Shown: positions 2,684 to 14,118 of the stretch, in pieces
Layout: each line of letters opens with the position of its first letter
How positions within the stretch are numbered: the first letter of the stretch is position 1
Source of the DNA: a bacterium
GTDB lineage: Bacteria > JACPSX01
Reading direction: 5' to 3'
Length of the DNA: 14,234 bases
Assembly: GCA_035288405.1 (NCBI GenBank)
Contig: DATEAK010000276.1
Coordinates: 1-14,234, forward strand
Made by a program: the position numbers and the translations under genes
The notes under the pieces: model-generated
What the model saw: only the letters and a program-made list of their open reading frames with translations
Databases searched by the model: none
Told to the model about the DNA's origin: nothing

Positions 2684-3037
2684 ATGCTTGTTGTGGCAAG
2701 ATCCAGGCAAGTGAAGAGTAGCCGGCCTCTCAAAGGGATTCTTCGGGAGCTTGCGCAGGCACTAAAAGACCGATACGGGGAGAAATTTGTGGGTCTCTGG
2801 CTCTATGGATCCCAGGCCCGCGGTCAGGCCCACGACCAATCAGACGTCGACCTTTTGTTGCTCCTGCGGGGAGAAGTCCGACCCTCAAAAGAAATTGACC
2901 GGATTGCCGACCTGCTGGCCGATTTTAACCTGCGGTACGGAGAACTCCTGTCGGTTCTCCCTGTACATGAGCAGACTTTCAAGAACGGCGACGGCCCTTT
3001 CTGGCGCAACGTGCGCCGGGAAGGCAAGGCCGCATGA
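2684..3037 (+). CDS. MntA-like minimal nucleotidyltransferase (Pol-beta superfamily), toxin-antitoxin-associated type
   Basis: Motif GSQARGQAHDQSDVDLLLLL matches the G-S-x(n)-D-x-D nucleotidyltransferase signature. Size is ~115 aa. The ATG at 2684 has a poor SD; GTG at 2693 preceded by GGGGGA is an alternative start. The stop overlaps the next gene as ATGA. Confidence 0.75.
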   Translation: MLVVARSRQVKSSRPLKGILRELAQALKDRYGEKFVGLWLYGSQARGQAHDQSDVDLLLLLRGEVRPSKEIDRIADLLADFNLRYGELLSVLPVHEQTFKNGDGPFWRNVRREGKAA

Positions 3038-3444
3038 TTGAACGGGAAGGCTTGATCCACAAGGCCCGGCGCTTCCTAATGAAGAAAGTACCGCCTAACG
3101 GAGCCCGGAGGAAAGATAACGGGATGCGTGCCGAATATGATTTCGCAGGCGGAATGCGCGGCAAGCACCATCGGGCCATGCAAGCCGGATATACAGTTAC
3201 GATTCATCAGGCGGATGGTACATCCGTCACTGAGGAGGTAAGACCTAAGGAAGGCGTAGTCATCCTAGCGCCAGATGTACGGGAGTACTTCCCGGACGCT
3301 GAGTCGGTGAACACAGCTTTGCGCTTGCTCATTAGGCTCATTCCTGACGAGCGTACCTCCGCTGCGAAAAGGGCGAAGAGTCGCGACGCGAGACGCCCGG
3401 ATGCCTTCCCCGGTGGCCGGAAATCGACCACGAAGAGGAGATAA
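3034..3444 (+). CDS. DUF4415/BrnA-like putative antitoxin-type protein
   Basis: The M-R-A-EYDF-AGG-M-RGK-H motif and …VVILAPDVREYFPDAESVNTALRLLIRL resemble the eYDFskakrGk / …v.irLd.dvleyf….iN.aLr… pattern of BrnA/DUF4415 proteins. The ATG at 3034 overlaps the upstream stop as ATGA. An internal ATG at 3124 (GGAGGA 11 nt upstream) would give a more typical ~106-aa product. No HEPN Rx4-6H motif is present, so it is not a HepT partner. Confidence 0.45.
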   Translation: MIEREGLIHKARRFLMKKVPPNGARRKDNGMRAEYDFAGGMRGKHHRAMQAGYTVTIHQADGTSVTEEVRPKEGVVILAPDVREYFPDAESVNTALRLLIRLIPDERTSAAKRAKSRDARRPDAFPGGRKSTTKRR

Positions 3445-4105: not shown

Positions 4106-4678
4106 CTAGCTCGCTGATTTGTTCCCGGCTGCCGGGGCCATGGCTGTGGGCTGCTTGCGGTGACACTTCTGGCAGTTTTCCTGGGTATTGTGGCAGCTTG
4201 CACATGCCTCCATGGAAGGCCGGTTCGTCGGTGTGATGCGGGCGTCGTGGGCGATGTTCACGTGACATTGCACGCAGGCGACTCCCATGTCGCCGGCGTG
4301 AAGCTTGTGAGGAATCTTGATCCCCTACACGTTGACTCGCATGATTCTGGGCTCGCCGTTTCCCACTTCCTTGTGGCAACTGCGGCACTTCTTGTCCACG
4401 TCACCGGGATCCGCTGAGAAGCTCTGCGGGAAACCTTGAGCAATGGGAAACTTGGCCTTGCCGTGGCAGCCGATGCAGGGAATTTTGGAGGTGTGCCCTG
4501 TAGCGGAGACTGCAAGAGGTGTGGCCCCCTGACCGTGGCAGGTCAGGCAAAAGCTCGGATTGCCGGAGGAGTAGCGGATCAGAGACAGAGTTCCCACGAT
4601 ACTGAGAACGATCGCAGCCACGCCTCCTAGGAGGATGGGGCCGCGCCAGCGATGAGGGATGCGGATCCCGGGATTCAT
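4106..4678 (-). CDS. membrane-anchored NapC/NirT/NrfH-like multihaem cytochrome c (six CxxCH), interrupted by an in-frame TAG at 4325-4327
   Basis: Track ORFs 4325..4678 and 4106..4288 are in the same frame, separated by a single TAG (4327-4325) plus 12 sense codons (…RIMRVNV*GIKIPHKLHAGDMGVACVQCH…). There is an N-terminal TM helix, an SFCLTCH first-haem motif typical of NapC/NrfH, and then CIGCH, CRSCH | CVQCH, CASCH, CQKCH. SD GGAGGAAAACAATA precedes the ATG at 4678. There is no SD before the internal Met at 4288. Confidence 0.75.
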
Positions 4679-4692
4679 TATTGTTTTCCTCC

Positions 4693-6951
4693 TTACACCT
4701 TGGCTACTTCGACTTCAGTTTCCATCCAGGCGTATTCCTGGCTCACCGGATCTTCCTTTTTCGGAACGATGGCGTTTAGATAAATTCCGCTGCCTTGTCC
4801 CTCCCACCAGACCAGGAGGGTGTCGGGATCACTGCTCTTGAAGCTCTTGCCCCGGGCAATGCGGCCGTGCCCCCAGTGCCCGAAGCCTTCCGCACAGGCC
4901 ACCACCTGAGGGTGAACTCCCTGGCTGATCCGTACTTTCTGCGTGACGGTGCCGTTCGCAGTTTTCAGGCGCACCTGATCCCCCTCCCGCACATGCAGAG
5001 CTGCGGCGGTTTCAGGATGGAGCCACAGGGGGTTGTCATGCTGGATCTCGGCGAGCCACTTGCAGGCCGCGGTGCGAGACCCTCCGCGCACGGTGCCCTT
5101 GAAAGTGGCGAGCATGAGCCGGCCGTTCGTGCGCCCGTTTTTTTCGGGCTCATAGCTCGGCAATCCTGCGAATCCCTGGCGGTGCATGGCCTCGGAGTAA
5201 ACTTCAAAGCGGCGAGAGGCGGTCTTGAACCCTTTTCCCCGATACTGCCGGAATCGGGGCTTTGCTTTTTCGTTAAACCATACCCCTTTTTTCTTGAGGG
5301 CTTCAAACCCTCCGGCCCCGGCCAGTCCGTCGATCTTCGGGGCCACCTTTTCCAGGTAGTCTTCAAAACTCCGGTAGGGGAAGAACGGTTCGACTCCGGG
5401 GATTCGGCGCGCCAGATCCAGGCACACCTCGGTAAATGGTTTTACCTTGGGGGGAGGCGTGACGAGGGGTTGCCGCAAACTCACGTACGGTACGTGTTCG
5501 AAGCTGGGGCCTGACTCCAGATCCCAACGCTCGAGATAGGTGGCGTCGGGCAGGACCAAGTCGCACAAGATTGCGGTCTCGCTCATGAAGGTGTCCACTG
5601 CCACCGAGTAGGGAATGAGCCGCTCGTCCTTGAAGACTTGAGTGATGGACCCCGAGTCCGGGGAAGCGTAAACGGGGTTGGCGGTGTAGGCCAGGTAAAT
5701 TCCAACTTTGATTTTTCGGCGGGCAATGTCCGAGAACAGGTTGTTGTGGTGGAAGGGAGAAGCCTGGCTTACCTTGGGAGGCACCGGTGTCAGGTCCGGG
5801 ATCGCAGCTCGCCGAGGGAAACAGGGACCGCCGGGCACGTCGACGTTTCCGATCACGGCGTTCAGAAGCGCAACGCAGCGCTCGTTCTGTGTTCCCTGCT
5901 GCCGCATGGAAACTCCGCGACCCGTGAGTGTGGTCGCCGGCTTCGTGGTTGCAAACTCGCGGGCCAGCCTCCGGATCACTGCTGCCGGCACCCCGCTTAC
6001 CTTCTGGGCGGCTTCGGGCGTGTAGGGATCCAGGTGGCGGCGCATGTGAACCAGGGGGAAGTTCGTCCACTCTTCTAGAAACTGCCGGTCGTGGAGTCCT
6101 TCCTCGATGATGGTGCGGGCCATGGCCATGGCCACGAACCCGTCCGTTCCCGGAGTGATCGGGTACCACTCATCGCTGCGCCCCGAGGTGTTCGAGATGC
6201 GCACGTCGAAGGTGACCAGGCGGGCGCCGTTCATGCGAGCCTCGTTGAGGCGCTGGATGAGAGGCAGATGGAAGAGATAGGCCTCGTAAGGATTGCCGCC
6301 GAAGTTGAGGATGTATTTGCTACGGGAGATGTCGGGAATCAGCACATCCTCGCCGTAGGTGAGAAGAGAGGCTGTCTCCCGACTGGCGCCGCCCAGGGAA
6401 GTCTCCAGTGTGTCCGAGGAAGTTCCATAGGCATGCAGGAAGCGCCGCACGAAGTTCAGCGTGGCGTTCTCCTTGGACTTGAAGTTTCCCTGGAAGATGA
6501 AGCGGTCCGCCTGTCCTTTCGCCTTGAGCTCCTGCAGCTTGGTCGAGAGTTCCTGAATCGCCTGATCCCAGGAGATCTGTTCCCAGCGCATCTCCCCGCG
6601 CTTGCCCGTGCGCTTGAGGGGGAACAGGAGGCGATCCGGATTGTTCACCAGGTTGGTGCCCGCCTGGCCCCGGGCGCAGAGTTTGCCCCGATTATTGGGA
6701 TGCAGGGGATTACCCTCGATTTTCACCAGCCGCCCTGAGTTAGTATCCACGTAACCCAGGATGCCGCAGCCTGCCGCGCACTGAAAGCAGGTACTGGGGA
6801 TGGCGACCCGGGCTTTGCCGGTGGTACGTGATACTTCCTCTCCTCCCGGTTTGAGCTCCTGGCCGAGACCGGGCAGGGGAAGCATCTCCCCCAGGGCCAG
6901 AATTCCCGCCCCGCCGATTCCAAACTTAAGAAACCTTCTGCGATCAATCAT
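4693..6951 (-). CDS. Tat-exported molybdopterin (bis-MGD) oxidoreductase catalytic subunit, PsrA/PhsA/TtrA family
   Basis: N-terminal twin-arginine signal MIDRRRFLKFGIGGAGILALG. FS0 [4Fe-4S] motif CFQCAAGCGI…(27)…C. The 752-aa length matches PhsA/PsrA. Its start lies 2 nt after the SPFH stop (TAACGATG). Confidence 0.9.
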   Translation of the reverse strand: MIDRRRFLKFGIGGAGILALGEMLPLPGLGQELKPGGEEVSRTTGKARVAIPSTCFQCAAGCGILGYVDTNSGRLVKIEGNPLHPNNRGKLCARGQAGTNLVNNPDRLLFPLKRTGKRGEMRWEQISWDQAIQELSTKLQELKAKGQADRFIFQGNFKSKENATLNFVRRFLHAYGTSSDTLETSLGGASRETASLLTYGEDVLIPDISRSKYILNFGGNPYEAYLFHLPLIQRLNEARMNGARLVTFDVRISNTSGRSDEWYPITPGTDGFVAMAMARTIIEEGLHDRQFLEEWTNFPLVHMRRHLDPYTPEAAQKVSGVPAAVIRRLAREFATTKPATTLTGRGVSMRQQGTQNERCVALLNAVIGNVDVPGGPCFPRRAAIPDLTPVPPKVSQASPFHHNNLFSDIARRKIKVGIYLAYTANPVYASPDSGSITQVFKDERLIPYSVAVDTFMSETAILCDLVLPDATYLERWDLESGPSFEHVPYVSLRQPLVTPPPKVKPFTEVCLDLARRIPGVEPFFPYRSFEDYLEKVAPKIDGLAGAGGFEALKKKGVWFNEKAKPRFRQYRGKGFKTASRRFEVYSEAMHRQGFAGLPSYEPEKNGRTNGRLMLATFKGTVRGGSRTAACKWLAEIQHDNPLWLHPETAAALHVREGDQVRLKTANGTVTQKVRISQGVHPQVVACAEGFGHWGHGRIARGKSFKSSDPDTLLVWWEGQGSGIYLNAIVPKKEDPVSQEYAWMETEVEVAKV

Positions 6952-6953
6952 CG

Positions 6954-7952
6954 TTATTCACTCGCTGAATGGCTGCCGTTGGCGTCCGGCTTTTCACCGT
7001 TGCCGCTGTTGCTGTTCGTAATCTTGTTGAGCGCGGTCACGCCCATGAGAGCTCCCAGCCCCATGGTTTCGACGGCCGAGCTCGGTACGATGACCATGGA
7101 GCCCCTCTCCTTGAGGCCTTCGTAGAGCATGTTCATGGCTCGCAGGTGAAGGGCCGTGGGATTATCCTTGTAGGATTCGGCTGCCTCGGCGAACATCTGG
7201 GCAATCTGAGTCTCCGATCGTCCGAGGATCACTCGGGCCTGACGCTCTCTCTCTGCCTGGGCCTGGATCGACAGGGCGTCCTGGAGAGAGGCCGGGATGA
7301 TCACGTCCCGGATCTCCACGGAAAGAACCTGAAGGCCCCAGCCGTCGGTGCGCTTGTCAATGAGGTTCTTGATCTGCTCGTCGATATTCTCACGCCCCAC
7401 GAGCATATCGGAGAGCTCGCTCTTGCCGATCACATCCCGCAGAGCCGTCTGGGATGCCCAGCTGATCACGTCGTAGTAGTCGGTGACTTCCAGTGCCGCT
7501 TTTTCAGGGTTGACGACTTTCCAGAAGCAGACGGCGTCCACGTCTACGGGGACGTTGTCTTTGGTCAAGGTTTCCTCGGCCCGGAAGCCGGTAGCGGTTA
7601 GCCGCAGGTCGATCCAGTAGGGAATCGTGTCAATCAGGGGGAAGATGAAAAAGAGGCCCGGGCCCGCCATCCTATGGAATTTCCCCAAGCGCAGGACGAT
7701 GGCGCGCTCCCACTGAGTCGCGACCTTCAGAGCCAGAAGGATAAACACGCCCACCGCCAGCAGAATCCCAGTAGGAATCGGGTTGTTTGTCAGGACGAAG
7801 GCCCCTACTCCGAACAGGGCGCACGCCACAAACAAGGTGGCCGAGAGGAGATTCGGGCGCAGCGTACCGGCCCGGATCTTCTGGGCCTCGAACTCATCCT
7901 GCTGTCTTTTGGCGGCGCGCCGGATCTCTTGCTTGGTACTCGGTTCCATCAT
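6954..7952 (-). CDS. SPFH/band-7 (stomatin/HflKC-like) membrane protein
   Basis: One N-terminal TM followed by the characteristic ATQWERAIVLRLGKF…GPGLFFIFPLID SPFH core and a coiled-coil Q/E/R-rich region. Strong SD AAGGAGGAA sits 4-5 nt before ATGATG at 7952. It lies between the NrfD and catalytic-subunit genes. Confidence 0.85.
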   Translation of the reverse strand: MMEPSTKQEIRRAAKRQQDEFEAQKIRAGTLRPNLLSATLFVACALFGVGAFVLTNNPIPTGILLAVGVFILLALKVATQWERAIVLRLGKFHRMAGPGLFFIFPLIDTIPYWIDLRLTATGFRAEETLTKDNVPVDVDAVCFWKVVNPEKAALEVTDYYDVISWASQTALRDVIGKSELSDMLVGRENIDEQIKNLIDKRTDGWGLQVLSVEIRDVIIPASLQDALSIQAQAERERQARVILGRSETQIAQMFAEAAESYKDNPTALHLRAMNMLYEGLKERGSMVIVPSSAVETMGLGALMGVTALNKITNSNSGNGEKPDANGSHSASE

Positions 7953-7979: not shown

Positions 7980-8879
7980 TTAGTGTTGGGGAATTGCCTG
8001 TCCGCCGATTACCATGGTGTAGCGCATCGCGAAGATTCCGAGCATGACTAGAACCGAGGCCACCGAGATCCCAAAGGGGGTCCGGGTGATGCGGTTGCTC
8101 AAGAGGGCAAGGGGGACCAGCGCCCCCAGGAGGATCTCTCCTCCCAGGAAGATATTTCGGAAGGCCCCTGTGAGGATGAGTTGTGCGGCCTCGTACGCTT
8201 CGTCGTGGGAGTTCAAGAGGACGAGAATGTCCGTGCCGATCAGGGAGAGATCCGCAACGATGGATACGATCAGCATGACCACCAGGCCGTTGATGAGGTC
8301 CATGTTAATCTTGCGCTCGGCGCTGAAGAATTTGTCCCGGGCGATTGCGATCAGAATCATCATGGCGATTCCGGAAACCATGGCCGAAGCCAGAAAGATG
8401 AAGGGCATCAACGCCGTGTTCCACAAAATGCGCGCCTTGGCCAGAGCCAGGATGAACCCCGTGTAGCCGTGCACCGACAGGGCGAGCGGGATGCCGATCA
8501 AGCCGAAGATCTTTGTGAGCTTGGCTTTTCCCATAAACATGAAAGTTCCGTAGATCATGCAGTTGATCGGGTACAGGGTGAGAAGAAACGAACCGTAAGA
8601 AATGGCCGAAGTTGGGTTGATGTAGTAGAAGAGTTCCCAGAAGCGCCAGGGCTGCTCCAGGTCGATCATCAAGTTCAAGGGCGCCACGATAAGGAGCAGG
8701 ATAGCCACGACGACGCCGATCTTCCCCAGGGGCTTGTAGCGGATCATGCCGAAGCCGTAAGCCAGTGTGGACAGGATGAAGGAACCGGCGCTGAGTCCCG
8801 TGAGATAGAAATAAACGGCAATGGGGATCCCCAGAGCCTCTCCGTAAGCGACGTTGTAAATGGTCGTAACTTCAGTCAT
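7980..8879 (-). CDS. NrfD/PsrC-family polytopic membrane quinol-interacting anchor subunit
   Basis: 299 aa, ~8 hydrophobic helices, typical NrfD/PsrC composition. The start ATG is 1 nt after the FeS-subunit stop (TAAGATG), with AGAGGAAG SD. Confidence 0.9.
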   Translation of the reverse strand: MTEVTTIYNVAYGEALGIPIAVYFYLTGLSAGSFILSTLAYGFGMIRYKPLGKIGVVVAILLLIVAPLNLMIDLEQPWRFWELFYYINPTSAISYGSFLLTLYPINCMIYGTFMFMGKAKLTKIFGLIGIPLALSVHGYTGFILALAKARILWNTALMPFIFLASAMVSGIAMMILIAIARDKFFSAERKINMDLINGLVVMLIVSIVADLSLIGTDILVLLNSHDEAYEAAQLILTGAFRNIFLGGEILLGALVPLALLSNRITRTPFGISVASVLVMLGIFAMRYTMVIGGQAIPQH

Positions 8880-8880
8880 C

Positions 8881-9486
8881 TTAGGCTTCCTCTACCCTTG
8901 TTTTGGCGGCCATCTCATCGAGGCCGATATAGAAAACTCGGGGCTCGGTCCCCTTCTCGGGCTTGAGAACCTGGATTGCGTTGGTGGCGATGAGACGGGA
9001 GATTTCGCTTTCGGGGTCGTTCACGTCTCCAAACACGCGGGCCCCGCCGGGACAGGTGTTGACACAAGACGGCACCAGCCCGGCGTCCACCCGGTGAAAG
9101 CAGAAGGTGCATTTCTGCACGATTTTCTTGACGGGGTTCACGTGCCGGGCGTCGTAAGGACAGGCGGCCATGCAATACTTGCAGCCGATGCAGCGGTGCT
9201 CGTCGATCATGACGATGCCGTCGGGCCTGCGGTAGGTCGCTTTCACGGGGCACACGCTCAGGCAAGCGGGACGCTCGCAGTTGTTGCACAGGCTGGGGAT
9301 GAAGACACGCCGTACGTTGGGGTAAGACCCTTTCTCTACGGTCTTGACCCAGGTCCGGTAGACTCCGAGGGGAACATCGTTTTCACTCTTGCAGGCAACG
9401 GCGCAGGAGTGACAGCCCAGGCAGCGCCTCAAGTCAATGAGCATGGCGTAGCGTTTGCTTTTTTTTTGGGAACCATTCCCTTTCAC
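8881..9486 (-). CDS. PsrB/TtrB/NrfC-like four-cluster [4Fe-4S] electron-transfer subunit
   Basis: Four ferredoxin-type motifs: CLGCHSCAVACKSEN, CNNCERPACLSVCP, CIGCKYCMAACP, CTFCFHRVDAGLVPSCVNTCP. Conserved KRYAMLIDLRRCLGC N-terminus. GTG start. No Tat motif, so it is presumably a hitchhiker on the catalytic subunit. Confidence 0.9.
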   Translation of the reverse strand: MKGNGSQKKSKRYAMLIDLRRCLGCHSCAVACKSENDVPLGVYRTWVKTVEKGSYPNVRRVFIPSLCNNCERPACLSVCPVKATYRRPDGIVMIDEHRCIGCKYCMAACPYDARHVNPVKKIVQKCTFCFHRVDAGLVPSCVNTCPGGARVFGDVNDPESEISRLIATNAIQVLKPEKGTEPRVFYIGLDEMAAKTRVEEA

Positions 9487-9488
9487 GA

Positions 9489-9611
9489 TTACTTCCCTTT
9501 TTCAGAAAGGTTTTTCCCCTGCGCGCCAAAGGCGTGCCAGCTCCAGGCGGCAAACAGCGCCACCGCAAACAAAATTCCGCCGAACGTCAAAAAGATCTTA
9601 AACCAGGTCAC
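9489..9611 (-). CDS. unannotated 40-aa single-TM peptide (VTWFKIFLTFGGILFAVALFAAWSWHAFGAQGKNLSEKGK)
   Basis: GTG start at 9611-9609 lies 5 nt after AAAGGAGGAA. The TAA stop at 9491-9489 is 2 nt before the FeS-subunit start. It has a hydrophobic core and a basic C-tail, and is below the 60-aa track threshold. Confidence 0.3.
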   Translation of the reverse strand: MTWFKIFLTFGGILFAVALFAAWSWHAFGAQGKNLSEKGK

Positions 9612-9637: not shown

Positions 9638-10054
9638 TTACCCTGAGTTCGGGGGGGTGCCCTCAGAGGAAAAGAATTGCTGTACCGTCCTGAGCCCGAT
9701 GAGGAGAGGAGTGGGCTCGGAGGACGCTGCGGGATCGAGGTTCTTCTCTGGGTCGAACCTCTCCAGGGATCTGTTGACGAGATGTTTGGTGATGGCTCCC
9801 ACGGCCAGCGCTACTAGAGAGCCTACGGCCAGCCAGAAGAGGCAGGCCACGGCCACTGCGAGGGCCATGCCGCCGACTACGAAGAGGGTGACGACTCCGC
9901 GCTCCGGCAGGGGAGAACCCATGATACTCACTGCCGAGATCAAGCCGAAAGAGCCCCCATAAAATATTCCCCAGGGAACTCCCACGAACAGAAAAACTGC
10001 GGCACCGGCAACAGCGCCGACTTTCAGTTGGAGTCGCAGTGCTCGTCGTGTCAT
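9638..10054 (-). CDS. hypothetical ~3-TM membrane protein with proline-rich soluble C-tail
   Basis: 138 aa. Three hydrophobic segments (AVAGAAVFLFVGVPWGIFYGG / FGLISAVSIMG / VVTLFVVGGMALAVAVACLFWLAVGSLVALAVGAI). Its start is 9 nt downstream of the receiver-gene stop. I recognise no family. Confidence 0.55.
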   Translation of the reverse strand: MTRRALRLQLKVGAVAGAAVFLFVGVPWGIFYGGSFGLISAVSIMGSPLPERGVVTLFVVGGMALAVAVACLFWLAVGSLVALAVGAITKHLVNRSLERFDPEKNLDPAASSEPTPLLIGLRTVQQFFSSEGTPPNSG

Positions 10055-10063
10055 GGCCCTCTC

Positions 10064-10495
10064 CTATTTTTGTACGCCCCCCTCCAGGGCCCGCAAAATC
10101 TGCCGCGGCTGGAAGGGCTCGAGAAAGCAAGGGAAGAAATCGACTTGCTCTCTTTCGCCACCGCAAAGCTCCGACTCATCTCCCACGGTTAGAATCACTC
10201 TGACCCCGGGATTGAGTCGGCGCACGATGGAAGCCACTTCGTATCCGGAAAGATCCCGAAGCTTCCCCTTGATGATGACTGCGTCCACCCCTCCGTTGAG
10301 CACCATGGAGACGGCCTTTCGGCCCTGGCGGGTTCGGGAAACCCGGTAGCCTTCCTCCTCGAGGAAATCCGTAAGGGACTCGCACTGGTCCTGTTCGTCG
10401 TGAACGAGAAGAATGCGCCGAACCTCGGGCCTTTCCGTGTCTCCGTTGCCCCTGGAGAAGAACTTTTTCCCAAGGAGATCCATCAATCCGTTCAT
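10064..10495 (-). CDS. stand-alone CheY-like receiver-domain protein with degenerate active site (pseudo-receiver)
   Basis: Track ORF is 10064..10546 with a GTG start. That start overlaps the sigma54 promoter, so the likely start is the ATG at 10495 (M18), with AGAGGAAC SD 7 nt upstream. The receiver fold is conserved (RRILLVHDE…T in RVILTVGD). However, the phospho-acceptor position reads VIIK (Lys) and the β5 Lys position reads CFLEPF (Glu). Confidence 0.7.
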   Translation of the reverse strand: MNGLMDLLGKKFFSRGNGDTERPEVRRILLVHDEQDQCESLTDFLEEEGYRVSRTRQGRKAVSMVLNGGVDAVIIKGKLRDLSGYEVASIVRRLNPGVRVILTVGDESELCGGEREQVDFFPCFLEPFQPRQILRALEGGVQK

Positions 10496-10529
10496 CGGTG
10501 GTTCCTCTGTTAGTGTTGCCATGGAGAAG

Positions 10530-10546
10530 TGCAGGTTGTGTGCCAC
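10530..10546 (-). promoter_or_regulatory. sigma54 (RpoN) -24/-12 promoter TGGCAC-N5-CTGCA for the oxidoreductase operon
   Basis: The minus strand reads G-TGGCAC-ACAAC-CTGCA (plus 10530-10546 tgcaggttgtgtgccac). This is one mismatch from TGGCAC-N5-TTGCA. It lies ~35 nt upstream of the proposed receiver start and downstream of an NtrC-type activator gene. Confidence 0.5.
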
Positions 10547-10591: not shown

Positions 10592-10616
10592 TCGTGGTTC
10601 GACAGGCTCACCACGA
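10592..10616. promoter_or_regulatory. inverted repeat TCGTGGT-N11-ACCACGA, candidate enhancer-binding-protein UAS
   Basis: Perfect 7-bp arms at 10592-10598 and 10610-10616, centred ~85 bp upstream of the predicted sigma54 transcription start. Confidence 0.3.
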
Positions 10617-10784
10617 ACGGTTAAGTACTAATGTTTTCAATAGCAGTCCCGTTCGGCCTGAGCTTGTCGAAGGCCAAATGGAGGGCGTTAGATTTGCTGG
10701 AAGATTTGAGGGTCTGAGGAGTGTTCAGGAAGTTCGGAAAGGAGGGGAGAAAAAAAGTGAAACGAAGTTTTGCAAAGGATCATT

Positions 10785-12167
10785 TCATTCTTTAATGTCT
10801 TTCTGGCTCTCCTCAATCTTGCGCCAGAGGGTCACGGTGCTGATTCCGAGGATCTCAGAAGCCTTTTTGCGGTTCCAGCGGGTGGCCTGCAGAACTTCCA
10901 AAATGTAGTCTTGCTCGATCTTCTTGAGGGAAGGGTATTGATCAACCCCCTTGGCGTCATTTATAGCAACAGATGAGGCGGGTACCGCTTCGCTGTTGAG
11001 CTGGCTGAAGCTGTCTATGGTGATTATCTCTGCTTCGGTGAGGATCACGGCGCGCTCGACGGCGTTTTCCAGCTCCCGGACATTTCCAGGCCACGGGTAG
11101 CTCTCCAGGAGAGCACGAGCTCCAGGGGTGAACCCCCTCACCCGTTTCTTCAAATCCGCGTTATACTTCGCGAGAAAGTAGTCGGCCAGCAGAGGAATAT
11201 CTCCCGGTCGTTCACGCAAGGGAGGAAGCATGATCGGCATCACATTCAGCCGGTAGTAGAGATCCTCGCGAAAGGTGCCGCGGCGGATGGCATCCTTCAG
11301 ATCCCGATTCGTGGCCGCCACGATGCGCACATCTACGAAGACCTTGCGCTCGCTTCCCACGGGCTGGATCTCTCTCTCCTGCAAGGCTCGCATGAGCTTG
11401 GCCTGGAGATCAACGCTCATGTCCCCTACCTCGTCCAGGAACAAAGTTCCGCCGTCGGCGAGCTCGAAGAGCCCTTTCTTACGGCGCAGGGCTCCGGTAA
11501 AGGCGCCCTTCTCATGGCCAAAGAGCTCGCTTTCCAGGAGATCCGCGGGGATGGCGGCGCAATTGACCACCACCAACTGGCCGTTGGCACGGCTGCTCTT
11601 CTGATGAACCTGCCGGGCCACGAGCTCCTTGCCCGTTCCCGTTTCCCCCAGGATCAGCACCGTGGAATCAGTGACGGCCACCTTGTCGATGAGCTGGCAT
11701 ACTTTCTGAATGGGGTCACTCTCGCCGATGATTTTTCCGGCGCTCACGGAACGGCGCAGGGCTTCCTTGAGGGCCCGGTTTTCCTGGAGGAGGTGCTGGC
11801 GCTCCAGGGCATTTTTGATCACCAGGCGCAGCTCGTCGGGGGTGAAGGGCTTGGGAACGTAGTCTACAGCCCCCTCCCGCATGGATTCCACCGCCGTGTC
11901 CACGTCGGCGTAACCCGTGATCATGATGACCGCCAGTTGGGAATCGATTTTGTGAAGGGATCGCAGGAGCTCGATGCCGCTCATCTTGGGCATCTTGATG
12001 TCGGCCACGATGATATCGAAAGCGTCGGTCCGAAAGCGCTCAAGGGCTTCGAAGCCGTTGCTGCAGGTCACGACCTCGTAATTTTCTTTCTTGAGGGCTT
12101 GGGTGCAGGCGTCCCGTGTGTCTTCCTCGTCGTCCACGATCAGGATGCGCTTGCGGGGCAGTTCCAT
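10785..12167 (-). CDS. NtrC-family sigma54-dependent response regulator (receiver + AAA+ + Fis-type HTH)
   Basis: Canonical receiver (ILIVDDEED…IIVADIKMP), Walker A GETGTGKE, the GAFTGA motif, and C-terminal HTH EILGISTVTLWRKI. AAAGGG SD. The gene lies 13 nt downstream of the kinase stop. Confidence 0.92.
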   Translation of the reverse strand: MELPRKRILIVDDEEDTRDACTQALKKENYEVVTCSNGFEALERFRTDAFDIIVADIKMPKMSGIELLRSLHKIDSQLAVIMITGYADVDTAVESMREGAVDYVPKPFTPDELRLVIKNALERQHLLQENRALKEALRRSVSAGKIIGESDPIQKVCQLIDKVAVTDSTVLILGETGTGKELVARQVHQKSSRANGQLVVVNCAAIPADLLESELFGHEKGAFTGALRRKKGLFELADGGTLFLDEVGDMSVDLQAKLMRALQEREIQPVGSERKVFVDVRIVAATNRDLKDAIRRGTFREDLYYRLNVMPIMLPPLRERPGDIPLLADYFLAKYNADLKKRVRGFTPGARALLESYPWPGNVRELENAVERAVILTEAEIITIDSFSQLNSEAVPASSVAINDAKGVDQYPSLKKIEQDYILEVLQATRWNRKKASEILGISTVTLWRKIEESQKDIKE

Positions 12168-12180
12168 AAACCCTTTCCCT

Positions 12181-14118
12181 CTATGCAGACACCGCAGCCA
12201 CGCCGGCCTGCACCGGAAGGCGAAAGATCAGAGCCGTCCCTCCTTCACCGTTGCCGCTCTCAATCCAGATGTTTCCCCCGTGCCTCTGGATGATCCCGTA
12301 ACAGATGGAGAGACCGAGTCCCGTCCCTTTATCTTTGGTCGTGTAAAAGGGCTCGAAAACTTTGGAGTGCAGTGCCTTGGGAATGCCGGGCCCGTTGTCT
12401 TTTACCGTCACAACGACCCAGTCTAGATCGAGTGCCCGGGTAATGACCTCGATCCGTCCTCCGGCATGAAATGCCTGGACGGAGTTCTGCATGACGTTCA
12501 CCAGAACCTGCTGGATCTGACTGCGGTCGCAGATAACCCGGGGAAGATCGGGTTCCAAGTGCAAGTGACACTCTACATTATTAATACGGATCTCGTTGGC
12601 CAAAATGCTATTGGCGGCCAGGACGATCTGATTCATATCGTTGGGTTCCATGTCCGTGTTGGTGCTGCGAGTGTAGTCCAGCAGATCCGAGACGATCTTC
12701 TTGCTGCGCACCACGTTGTCCACGATCTTGCGGATGTTCTTGTAATGAGGATCCTCGGGGGCGGTTTCCTCCAGGACGAGCTTGGAATAGAGGAGGATGT
12801 TTCCCAAGGGATTGTTGATCTCATGAGCCACGCCGGCGGCGAGCTGCCCCGTGGCTGCCAGGCGCTCGGAGTGGATGAGCTGCTTTTGCAGTGATTCCCG
12901 GCTCTTCTCCTCGGTGAGATCGTGGGTAATATCCACATAGGCCAGGGTGTGGTCGTGCTCGTCTCGCAGGCTGCTGATGTTGACAAAAGCAGGGAAAGTT
13001 TTACCGTTCTTGCGCAGAAGCTGAATCTCGCTCCGGTAGGATCCTTCCAGTTCAACGGCATTCCAGACTCGACGCTGCGTCTCTCCCAGGAGGGAGTAAG
13101 GCTCACCGGTTAGTTCCATAGCACCGTAGCCGAGCATCTCCTCGGCGCCGTGACTGAAGAAAAGGATGGTGCCGTTGGGATCTATGACGATGATGGACTC
13201 GCGCACGTTGCCAAGCACCCGCTCCAGGAGTTCCTTTTTGTCCCGAATCTCGATGGAGCGTTTGAGGGCGTCGGCCATCTCGTTGAAGGATTGGGCCAGA
13301 ACTCCGATCTCGTCTTCTCCTTCGCCCAGAACTTTCCTGTCGAAATCCCCCTTGCTGAAGAACTTCGTCAAGTCCACGAGCTTTTTCAGGCGGTTGATCA
13401 CCAGGCGGTTCAACAGGAGACTCAGGACGATGACCGCGGTGATGATCATGAGTCCCATGGAGTAGAGAACCTCTCTGAATTTCGTGGCGATTTGCTTCTC
13501 AATGTCGGTCATGGAGAAGTCGGTGATGAGGACCCCGTTGATCTTGGTCAGGGGACTGTGACAGCCGTAGCACTCGGGTTCGTTGAAGATGGGGTTCACG
13601 TTGCGGAAGATTTGCTCGCCGTTCTCTTCCTTATATATGACGGTCTTGTTACGCACTTCGGGGCTATACCGGTGGCAGATCTGGCAGGTGTAATCGTTCT
13701 GATTGAGGATCTCACCGACCCGTCTCATCTCCGGGGACATCTTGATCTCCCCGCGCTTGTCCACCAGGAAAATGTTGTCTACCCCCTTCTGCTTGCCGAC
13801 GGTTTCGATGATGTAGCGGGCCTCCTCCAGATCGCGGTTGATCATGGCGTGCTTGAGGCTCCCCTTGATGACGTCGCTTAAGTAATGGGTGCTGGAATCC
13901 CGCAGGTTTTCGATGAGGTCGTGGCGAAAGCGGAACACCTGGTAGCTGTAGAAGACCGACATGATGGCCACGATGGCCACCACGATCCCCACAGTTGCCT
14001 TGAAGCGTAAGCTTTGATGAAACCTCTTGATCCTCAAAGGCCAACCTATGGATGCAGAACGAACTTCGAACGGTTGACCCCTCCCAATGGGGAATACATG
14101 TAGTCTCTTTGGGGACAA
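12181..14118 (-). CDS. sensor histidine kinase: TM, periplasmic domain with two c-type haem motifs, TM, HAMP, PAS, HisKA, HATPase_c
   Basis: TM1 ATVGIVVAIVAIMSVFYSY. ~160-aa periplasmic region containing CQICH (13686-13672) and CYGCH (13572-13558). TM2 VLYSMGLMIITAVIVLSLLL. Then HAMP, PAS, the H-box AAGVAHEINNPL, and N/G1/G2 boxes (DNGPGIP…GTGLGLSI). The track start at 14118 is TTG; the true start is uncertain. Confidence 0.9.
   Translation of the reverse strand: MSPKRLHVFPIGRGQPFEVRSASIGWPLRIKRFHQSLRFKATVGIVVAIVAIMSVFYSYQVFRFRHDLIENLRDSSTHYLSDVIKGSLKHAMINRDLEEARYIIETVGKQKGVDNIFLVDKRGEIKMSPEMRRVGEILNQNDYTCQICHRYSPEVRNKTVIYKEENGEQIFRNVNPIFNEPECYGCHSPLTKINGVLITDFSMTDIEKQIATKFREVLYSMGLMIITAVIVLSLLLNRLVINRLKKLVDLTKFFSKGDFDRKVLGEGEDEIGVLAQSFNEMADALKRSIEIRDKKELLERVLGNVRESIIVIDPNGTILFFSHGAEEMLGYGAMELTGEPYSLLGETQRRVWNAVELEGSYRSEIQLLRKNGKTFPAFVNISSLRDEHDHTLAYVDITHDLTEEKSRESLQKQLIHSERLAATGQLAAGVAHEINNPLGNILLYSKLVLEETAPEDPHYKNIRKIVDNVVRSKKIVSDLLDYTRSTNTDMEPNDMNQIVLAANSILANEIRINNVECHLHLEPDLPRVICDRSQIQQVLVNVMQNSVQAFHAGGRIEVITRALDLDWVVVTVKDNGPGIPKALHSKVFEPFYTTKDKGTGLGLSICYGIIQRHGGNIWIESGNGEGGTALIFRLPVQAGVAAVSA

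Follow-up and report, generated by a model that had tools for sequence, protein, structure and literature searches.

What does a receiver protein do at the head of a respiratory operon when its pocket seems no longer able to take part in phosphotransfer? The question is raised by a gene on a 14,234-nt bacterial contig (DATEAK010000276.1 of assembly GCA_035288405.1; this whole stretch is the window below), which encodes a single-domain receiver-fold protein of 143 aa (minus strand, 10064..10495; MNGLMD...GGVQK; pocket H32, D33, K76, T103/V104, E126). An earlier note, made from the letters of the sequence, had singled the gene out for a Lys in place of the phospho-acceptor Asp and a Glu in place of the β5 Lys, and had proposed that its product is a pseudo-receiver working either on the adjacent kinase/NtrC-type pair or as a structural partner of the encoded complex. 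We find that both substitutions stand, that the protein belongs to a discrete family of putative stand-alone pseudo-receivers, and that within this family the acceptor and β5 positions covary.

The window protein matches the Pfam receiver hidden Markov model (HMM) PF00072 with 47.5 bits (E 2.4e-12; gathering cut-off 30.2 bits) over profile positions 1-110 of 111, and it has the (βα)5 flavodoxin-like fold. Residue equivalences were drawn by four routes, namely phmmer alignment to TrrA and AdeR, two receivers of solved structure, a BLASTP comparison with the receiver domain of the NtrC-type activator encoded in the window, a profile of 354 receiver domains, and a profile of the protein's own family, and all of them agree on the two substitutions. 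Against TrrA/AdeR, the activator receiver and the 354-domain profile, VIIK(76)GKL aligns with the hhhhD-x-x-MP segment and FLE(126)PF with xxKPF. Lys76 is at the acceptor position (D57 of CheY), a column that is Asp in 328 of the 354 receiver domains, and Glu126 is at the β5-Lys position (K109 of CheY), where Lys is found in 155 of 173, with the conserved Pro127 kept directly after it. The profile alignment, the kind of check that had been proposed, upheld both equivalences, and the Asp of RDLSG, named at the outset as the residue that might turn out to be the true acceptor, falls at D+5 in the β3-α3 loop. In the AlphaFold models, β3 ends at K76 and β5 spans residues 123-125 and is followed by E126; neither of the two models has an alternative Asp at the end of β3.

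The remainder of the pocket is less intact than had been supposed. The 'acidic pocket' survives in its second residue, since DD2 is Asp33 in the window, but DD1 is His32 and DD2 is itself Asn in the three other orthologues. Similarly, the equivalent of CheY T87 is retained if the family alignment is followed, which places T103 there (Thr in 61 of 72 members, with Ala usually as the next residue), whereas the generic profile and BLAST place V104 at this position and T103 is replaced by Ala in two of the four orthologues (P0003 and P0004). The window protein lacks three features of a functional receiver, the acceptor Asp, the Mg2+-binding acidic pair and the β5 Lys, and it falls under the computational definition of a pseudo-receiver or aspartate-less receiver (ALR), being recognised as a receiver while having no acceptor Asp. 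The evidence is good for the proposal of a phosphorylation-independent pseudo-receiver: other residues stand in place of the acceptor Asp, the first metal-binding Asp and the β5 Lys, and the family to which the protein belongs has no complete catalytic set. Taken together, the residues show a single-domain receiver-fold protein that is predicted to be unable to accept a phosphoryl group.

The gene is shorter than it was initially drawn. An open reading frame (ORF) from a GTG at 10546 to 10064 gives a 160-aa translation, but this start overlaps the -24 promoter element, and the conserved start is the ATG at 10495. A ribosome-binding site, GAGGA (10503..10507, minus strand, read from the sequence), lies 7 nt 5' of this ATG, and in an alignment of five orthologous upstream regions the AGAGGA and the ATGAA(C/T) start are invariant amid diverged surroundings. 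Because the ribosome-binding site and ATG are invariant and all database orthologues are 143 aa long, we set the gene at 10495..10064. The protein is that deposited as OFW27709.1, from an Acidobacteria metagenome-assembled genome (MAG) from Rifle groundwater. All four orthologues of the window clade, which share 68-100% identity, carry K76 and E126 unchanged, and since the ratio of non-synonymous to synonymous substitution (dN/dS) across these four is 0.08-0.25, indicative of purifying selection, we judge the pseudo-receiver to be functional and not a decaying copy. An N-terminal amphipathic membrane helix in residues 1-16 was also considered and is not claimed, its hydrophobic moment being only 0.33-0.55 and its AlphaFold confidence (pLDDT) <50.

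A single-sequence word-index search returned only these four orthologues, and an exhaustive HMMER search of 1.84 billion representatives gave a single cluster at E < 1e-30, with generic receivers below it. Multi-receiver proteins with summed scores made up most of the top of that list, and a family became visible only after per-domain re-scoring and a profile search. After re-scoring, the best single-domain matches stood at 68-89 bits, compared with 30-55 bits for ordinary receivers, and these were stand-alone proteins with a non-Asp acceptor and 28-38% identity to the query. A profile built from these proteins then recovered about 66 clusters at 107-178 bits, below which scores fell sharply to 72 bits or less; the window protein itself scores 178 bits. 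These searches show the window protein to be a member of a discrete, conserved family of about 70 predicted stand-alone pseudo-receivers, which are 123-157 aa long, are annotated only as 'response regulator' or 'CheY-like', and come from MAGs of uncultured Acidobacteriota (including Candidatus Acidoferrum), Methylomirabilota and Tectomicrobia. The acceptor Asp is missing in 70 of 72 members; in the other two, which retain it, Ala or Arg takes the place of the second acidic residue. Hallmarks of the family are an L-P-G-L-(E/S)-G-Y-E motif after β3, Thr103, and F-x-C-F-x-x-P at β5, although the window clade is without the hallmark Pro at D+4. The Cys of the β5 motif occupies the K-3 'switch' position (C123 in the window), which is normally Tyr or Phe, and it is present in 66 of the 72 members. 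Scans of the window protein against Pfam and NCBIfam found no dedicated model for the family, and no such family appeared in the literature searched. One metagenomic protein of 331 aa, P0041, carries the pseudo-receiver fused to a transmembrane helix and a five-haem c7/c3-type cytochrome whose domain is collinear with the terminal cytochrome of the operon; as a Rosetta-stone fusion, it hints that the pseudo-receiver may work at the membrane beside a cytochrome.

The reciprocal change in charge between the two pocket positions, noted at first as curious, proved to be a property of the family. Across the 72 sequences, the acceptor position is occupied by Ser (29), Asn (17), Lys (16), Gln (5), Arg (2), His (1) or Asp (2), and the β5-Lys position by Lys (40), Glu (14), Ala (6), Thr (4) and others. 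How the two positions pair is far from random: the commonest acceptor/β5 pairs are Ser/Lys (26) and Asn/Lys (11), followed by Lys/Glu (7), Gln/Glu (5), Asn/Ala (5), Lys/Thr (4) and Arg/Glu (2). A β5 Lys never accompanies an acceptor Lys or Arg (0 of 18) and accompanies the other acceptors in 40 of 54 cases (Fisher p = 1e-8, not corrected for phylogeny). In a neighbour-joining tree built without the acceptor and β5 columns, an acceptor Lys together with loss of the β5 Lys arises in at least three to four separate places, two of them nested within the Ser/Asn-Lys crown. The clearest such change is seen between the sister proteins P0167 (IIMK...CFPNP) and P0176 (IIMS...CFPKP), which in the segments compared are set apart chiefly by these two residues. 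The Lys/Glu pair of the window is thus explained by a family-wide mutual exclusion of two pocket lysines, or of an acceptor Arg and a β5 Lys. Because Asp57 and Lys109 are in contact in CheY, we infer by analogy that the acceptor and β5 side chains of the family touch and that the pocket takes only one cation. Lys76/Glu126 would then be a charge-reversed version of the Asp57-Lys109 contact, and the pocket would be electrostatically closed without metal or phosphate. Basic residues are rare at the acceptor position of ALRs, where Arg, Lys and His together make up 4% and are speculated, in the discussion of this position by Maule et al. 2015 (PMC4395418), to replace the missing metal ion. The covariation described in the relevant part of the review by Bourret et al. 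2025 (PMC12632262) involves DD1 and K, and the coupling of D and K is a family-specific addition to it.

The assignment of the gene as the first cistron behind a sigma-54 promoter holds not only in the window but also for every family member examined. The window promoter is an exact match to the -24/-12 pattern (TGGCAC-ACAAC-CTGCA, 10530..10545, minus strand); its GG and GC are invariant across five lineages in which the flanks have diverged, and a GGCAC-N5-TTGC-type element lies 42-52 nt 5' of the pseudo-receiver start in every locus examined. A further, near-consensus sigma-54 match (9539..9525) was set aside as probably due to chance, having a mismatch at -12 and lying inside a conserved 40-aa ORF. 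Farther upstream, just past the stop codon of the activator gene, an inverted repeat with 23-nt arms forms a palindromic TGAAA...TTTCA element (10752..10793, minus strand). GTTTCA-N3-TGAAAC palindromes occupy the same place in the GC-rich loci L016 (7810-7824), L024 (7888-7902) and L025 (5179-5193), and variant TTTCA/TGAAA palindromes occur in other loci, including L005 and L018, which have no adjacent activator. We consider these palindromes candidate upstream activator (enhancer) sites for the activator family. Between the palindrome and the promoter, the window and L010 also share an insertion of about 118 nt that the closer L001 lacks; within it, an inverted repeat at 10598-10671 with 23-nt arms that are 83% complementary may be a small mobile or repetitive extragenic palindromic (REP)-like element.

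Two regulatory genes lie directly 5' of the pseudo-receiver on the same strand. The nearer (10785..12167) encodes an NtrC-type sigma-54 activator which, by Pfam, sequence and alignment, has a canonical receiver (DD/D56/T84/K106), an AAA+ domain with the GAFTGA motif, and a Fis-type helix-turn-helix; the sole source of the pseudo-receiver is the target promoter of such an activator. The farther (12181..14118, by Pfam) encodes a sensor histidine kinase with a periplasmic two-CxxCH domain followed by HAMP-PAS-HisKA-HATPase, and its true start is probably downstream of 14118. We recovered genomic context for 12 lineages, and in 10 of these the kinase and NtrC-type activator are directly 5' of the pseudo-receiver (the window, L001, L014, L016, L020, L021, L022, L024, L025 and the P0216 contig), which supports, as conserved synteny, the proposed association with the adjacent pair. 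The two haem-binding motifs of the kinase, CQICH and CYGCH (residues ~145-187), are 38 residues apart, and this exact spacing is kept in nine orthologous kinases (those of the window and the eight numbered loci just listed), which suggests that the kinase is a c-type di-haem redox or ligand sensor controlling these operons. In the P0003 lineage (L005 and L006), the upstream genes are not the kinase and activator and include, in divergent orientation, an ArsP-type permease and a fragment of a major facilitator superfamily (MFS) transporter; both of these loci still keep the sigma-54 promoter and the upstream TGAAA/TTTCA element.

Downstream, all on the minus strand, the window operon continues with the genes of a membrane-bound respiratory complex. 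A 138-aa polytopic membrane protein (9638..10054), starting 9 nt past the pseudo-receiver stop, has no Pfam or NCBIfam family and is lineage-specific, with only five homologues found, all from the same clade. It is followed by an unannotated single-helix membrane ORF of 40 aa (VTWFKIFLTFGGILFAVALFAAW..., 9489..9611, read from the sequence), a gene called at the same place in L004, L005, L007 and L008. Next come a 4Fe-4S ferredoxin subunit resembling PsrB/TtrB/NrfC (8881..9486; Pfam Fer4_11, and NCBIfam TtrB at 259 bits, below its cut-off) and an NrfD/PsrC-type quinone-interacting membrane subunit (7980..8879; Pfam NrfD, 150.8 bits). An HflK/C-like SPFH/Band 7 membrane-scaffold protein (6954..7952; Pfam Band_7, 122.5 bits) is encoded between the NrfD and molybdoenzyme genes, a position shared by L001, L004 and the distantly related L018, and is an unusual partner for a Psr/Phs-type reductase. 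The catalytic subunit is a PhsA/PsrA-like molybdopterin oxidoreductase (4693..6951) exported by twin-arginine translocation (Tat), identified by Pfam and NCBIfam but below every equivalog cut-off; a genome search with it yielded nothing beyond the Tectomicrobia contig L001 and two distant enzymes. The last gene (4106..4678; translation and Pfam) encodes a membrane-anchored multihaem cytochrome c with six CxxCH motifs and is interrupted by an in-frame TAG at 4325-4327. The codon is CAA (Gln) in an intact 188-aa Tectomicrobia orthologue (L001, 9947-10513), and the TAG may have arisen by nonsense mutation, reflect variation between strains or be an error of assembly. Two further features of the contig are unrelated to the pseudo-receiver: an NTP_transf_2 nucleotidyltransferase-domain ORF and an overlapping 136-aa ORF on the plus strand (2684-3444), which may form a toxin-antitoxin-like pair, and an IclR-type regulator on the minus strand (1403-2323).

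The composition of the operon varies around a common core, with ferredoxin and NrfD genes present wherever the contig is long enough. In most members, the pseudo-receiver is followed by a cytochrome c (~212 aa), a multihaem c7-like protein (~243 aa), ferredoxin and NrfD; in L022 by a C554-like multihaem cytochrome; in L025 by cytochrome c, a large ferredoxin and NrfD; and in the window clade by the genes described above, an order that L018 resembles in having ferredoxin, NrfD and Band 7. In L016, L020, L022, L024 and L025 the stop codon of the pseudo-receiver overlaps the start of the next gene, which encodes an exported or membrane protein. Searching the literature turned up nothing specific on this arrangement of genes.

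The reading that we favour, tentatively and at a confidence somewhat short of even, is that the protein is a phosphorylation-independent feedback adaptor that works on kinase or activator, a role suggested by its sequence and its place; we put it first because the protein is produced only when the activator fires its promoter. In such a loop, the activator would fire the promoter, the pseudo-receiver would be made, and it would act back without phosphorylation. It might dock through its receiver surfaces on the kinase DHp domain, as a competitor that consumes no phosphate, or alternatively on the receiver domain of the activator as a heterodimer partner, modes that have both been put forward for the pseudo-receiver CmrT (PMC12632262), and the outcome would be a tuned amount of phosphorylated or assembled activator at or near the membrane, where the complex and the kinase sit. 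Several observations weigh against this proposal. The kinase pair is no more constant a neighbour than the ferredoxin/NrfD genes, and in L005 and L018 the pseudo-receiver is kept with the respiratory operon with no kinase or activator adjacent. The α1 specificity residues of the pseudo-receiver and its cognate activator are similar at three of five positions in nine loci, only a partial likeness, and the better AlphaFold model predicts no α4 helix, so that the usual α4-β5-α5 dimer face is weakened. Finally, the P0041 fusion and the five stop/start overlaps fit a complex-bound role equally well. Such a role would make the protein an accessory or assembly subunit on the cytoplasmic face of the complex, serving its stability or assembly with no direct two-component action and docking perhaps on the NrfD loops, the 138-aa membrane protein, the SPFH protein or the cytochrome anchor. 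We consider this possible but somewhat unlikely. It would account for a pseudo-receiver that shares a transcription unit with ferredoxin and NrfD wherever the contig is long enough, that is retained with the operon even where no kinase or activator is next to it, that has overlapping or tightly spaced junctions with the next gene, and that is naturally joined to a transmembrane helix and a five-haem c7-type cytochrome. However, little of the complex is exposed to the cytoplasm, because its catalytic, ferredoxin and cytochrome subunits are periplasmic or Tat-exported; there is no constant adjacent partner, because the gene directly downstream varies by clade (monohaem cytochrome, C554-like cytochrome, ferredoxin or membrane protein); and the fusion is a single metagenomic protein. 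As both sets of neighbours are nearly constant, the evidence does not separate the adaptor from the subunit, and the adaptor or anti-activator and the structural partner, both of which the earlier note had raised, are the two leading hypotheses.

A protein that signals outward instead, as an output or connector in the form of a constitutively 'on' receiver whose abundance carries the signal to an unlinked partner, strikes us as distinctly unlikely. The partner could be another regulator, a protease adaptor, a motility or metabolic protein, or a redox partner reached through the conserved Cys123. The single-domain architecture leaves the target open, the K-3 Cys is conserved in nearly all members, and in its treatment of models the pseudo-receiver review lists expression-level regulation as a simple one downstream of a two-component system (PMC12632262). 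Yet no third neighbour is conserved in the 12 contexts, redox chemistry is without support, and Cys at K-3 is also common in the unrelated receivers retrieved (56 of 173). Very improbable is the deflationary account in which an ordinary phosphorylatable response regulator has been misaligned or a functionless remnant is decaying: the window copy does have D33 and a Thr near the T position, but four independent alignment routes give Lys at the acceptor, both AlphaFold models offer no other Asp at the end of β3, and the dN/dS values and the invariance of K76 and E126 in the four orthologues are not those of a remnant. The feedback adaptor can also be put in a bolder form, which we regard as rather unlikely, in which the protein would be the obligate third component of a redox-sensing cassette with the di-haem kinase and the sigma-54 activator, would report the abundance or state of the newly made NrfD complex from the membrane back to the kinase or activator, and would owe a permanently 'closed', binding-competent pocket to its acceptor/β5 pair (Lys-Glu, Ser-Lys, Asn-Lys and others). 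If true, such a role in the cassette would give PspA-type or flux-sensing feedback a counterpart built on the receiver fold.

The pseudo-receiver class itself is not new, as pseudo-receivers are common, making up ~4-6% of receivers, and ~6% of bacterial ones, by the figures given in the two reviews (PMC4395418, PMC12632262). New here are the discrete stand-alone family, its place as leader cistron of sigma-54 respiratory operons beside a di-haem kinase, and the covariation of the acceptor with the β5 Lys. How bacterial pseudo-receivers work "remains a mystery", in a phrase from Bourret et al. 2025 (PMC12632262), and the system, in which a lone single-domain pseudo-receiver comes with a single kinase, activator and promoter, provides a compact, conserved test case of simple genetics. 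The family further supplies a naturally occurring range of pocket types (Ser-Lys, Asn-Lys, Lys-Glu, Lys-Thr and Gln-Glu) in which the acceptor and β5 positions are coupled even without phosphate, and it flags a widespread, little-studied cassette, a haem-c kinase and sigma-54 activator set over NrfD-type modules in uncultured Acidobacteriota, Methylomirabilota and Tectomicrobia. Its main use may be as a clean experimental entry to how bacterial pseudo-receivers work.

Compared with known systems, the window protein is closest in kind to the pseudo-receivers and ALRs surveyed in PMC4395418 and PMC12632262, with which it shares the receiver HMM match, the (βα)5 fold, the missing acceptor Asp, a degenerate metal-binding pair and no expected phosphotransfer. 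It differs in having lost the β5 Lys as well, whereas the counts given for ALRs have a basic β5 residue kept in 70% (PMC4395418), and in belonging to a family in which the acceptor and β5 covary, whereas the covariation passages of the two reviews (PMC4395418, PMC12632262) highlight DD1/K coupling and describe no D/K coupling. Unlike ALRs generally, it is also a stand-alone protein with a fixed genomic role. HP1043 was considered as a precedent for an acceptor Asp-to-Lys change and rejected, because its Lys replaces Asp8, the first acidic residue, and its acceptor region is deleted. For CmrT of the Clostridioides difficile CmrRST system, the modes proposed in the section devoted to it are kinase competition, heterodimerisation, or output by expression level (PMC12632262). 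Like the window protein, CmrT is a pseudo-receiver tied to, and expressed via, an otherwise normal kinase/regulator pair, but it has an OmpR-type DNA-binding domain and lies in the operon of its kinase, whereas the window protein has no output domain and heads a sigma-54 target operon.

In genetic arrangement, the locus recalls PspA-PspF, where the first gene of a sigma-54 operon acts back on the activator and small membrane proteins are encoded beside it. The likeness is one of arrangement alone: PspA, an all-helical protein of the IM30/ESCRT-III type, binds the AAA+ domain and has no homology to the receiver fold. The Geobacter cbcBA operon is likewise sigma-54-dependent and encodes a quinone-linked cytochrome complex; it is induced at low redox potential by the adjacent NtrC-type BccR and contains an extra response-regulator-like gene, GSU0596 (bioRxiv 10.1101/2021.04.15.440034), but it differs in gene order, in its b-type cytochrome complex and in the orientation of the regulator. 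Mycobacterial complex I provides a parallel for a subunit: MSMEG_2064/Rv3143 has a single domain of receiver fold and is encoded together with a respiratory complex, and MSMEG_2064 is a structural subunit of complex I that undergoes no phosphotransfer while bound (PMC10068793). Should the window protein prove to be a subunit of its complex, it would extend this precedent to a different class of respiratory enzyme.

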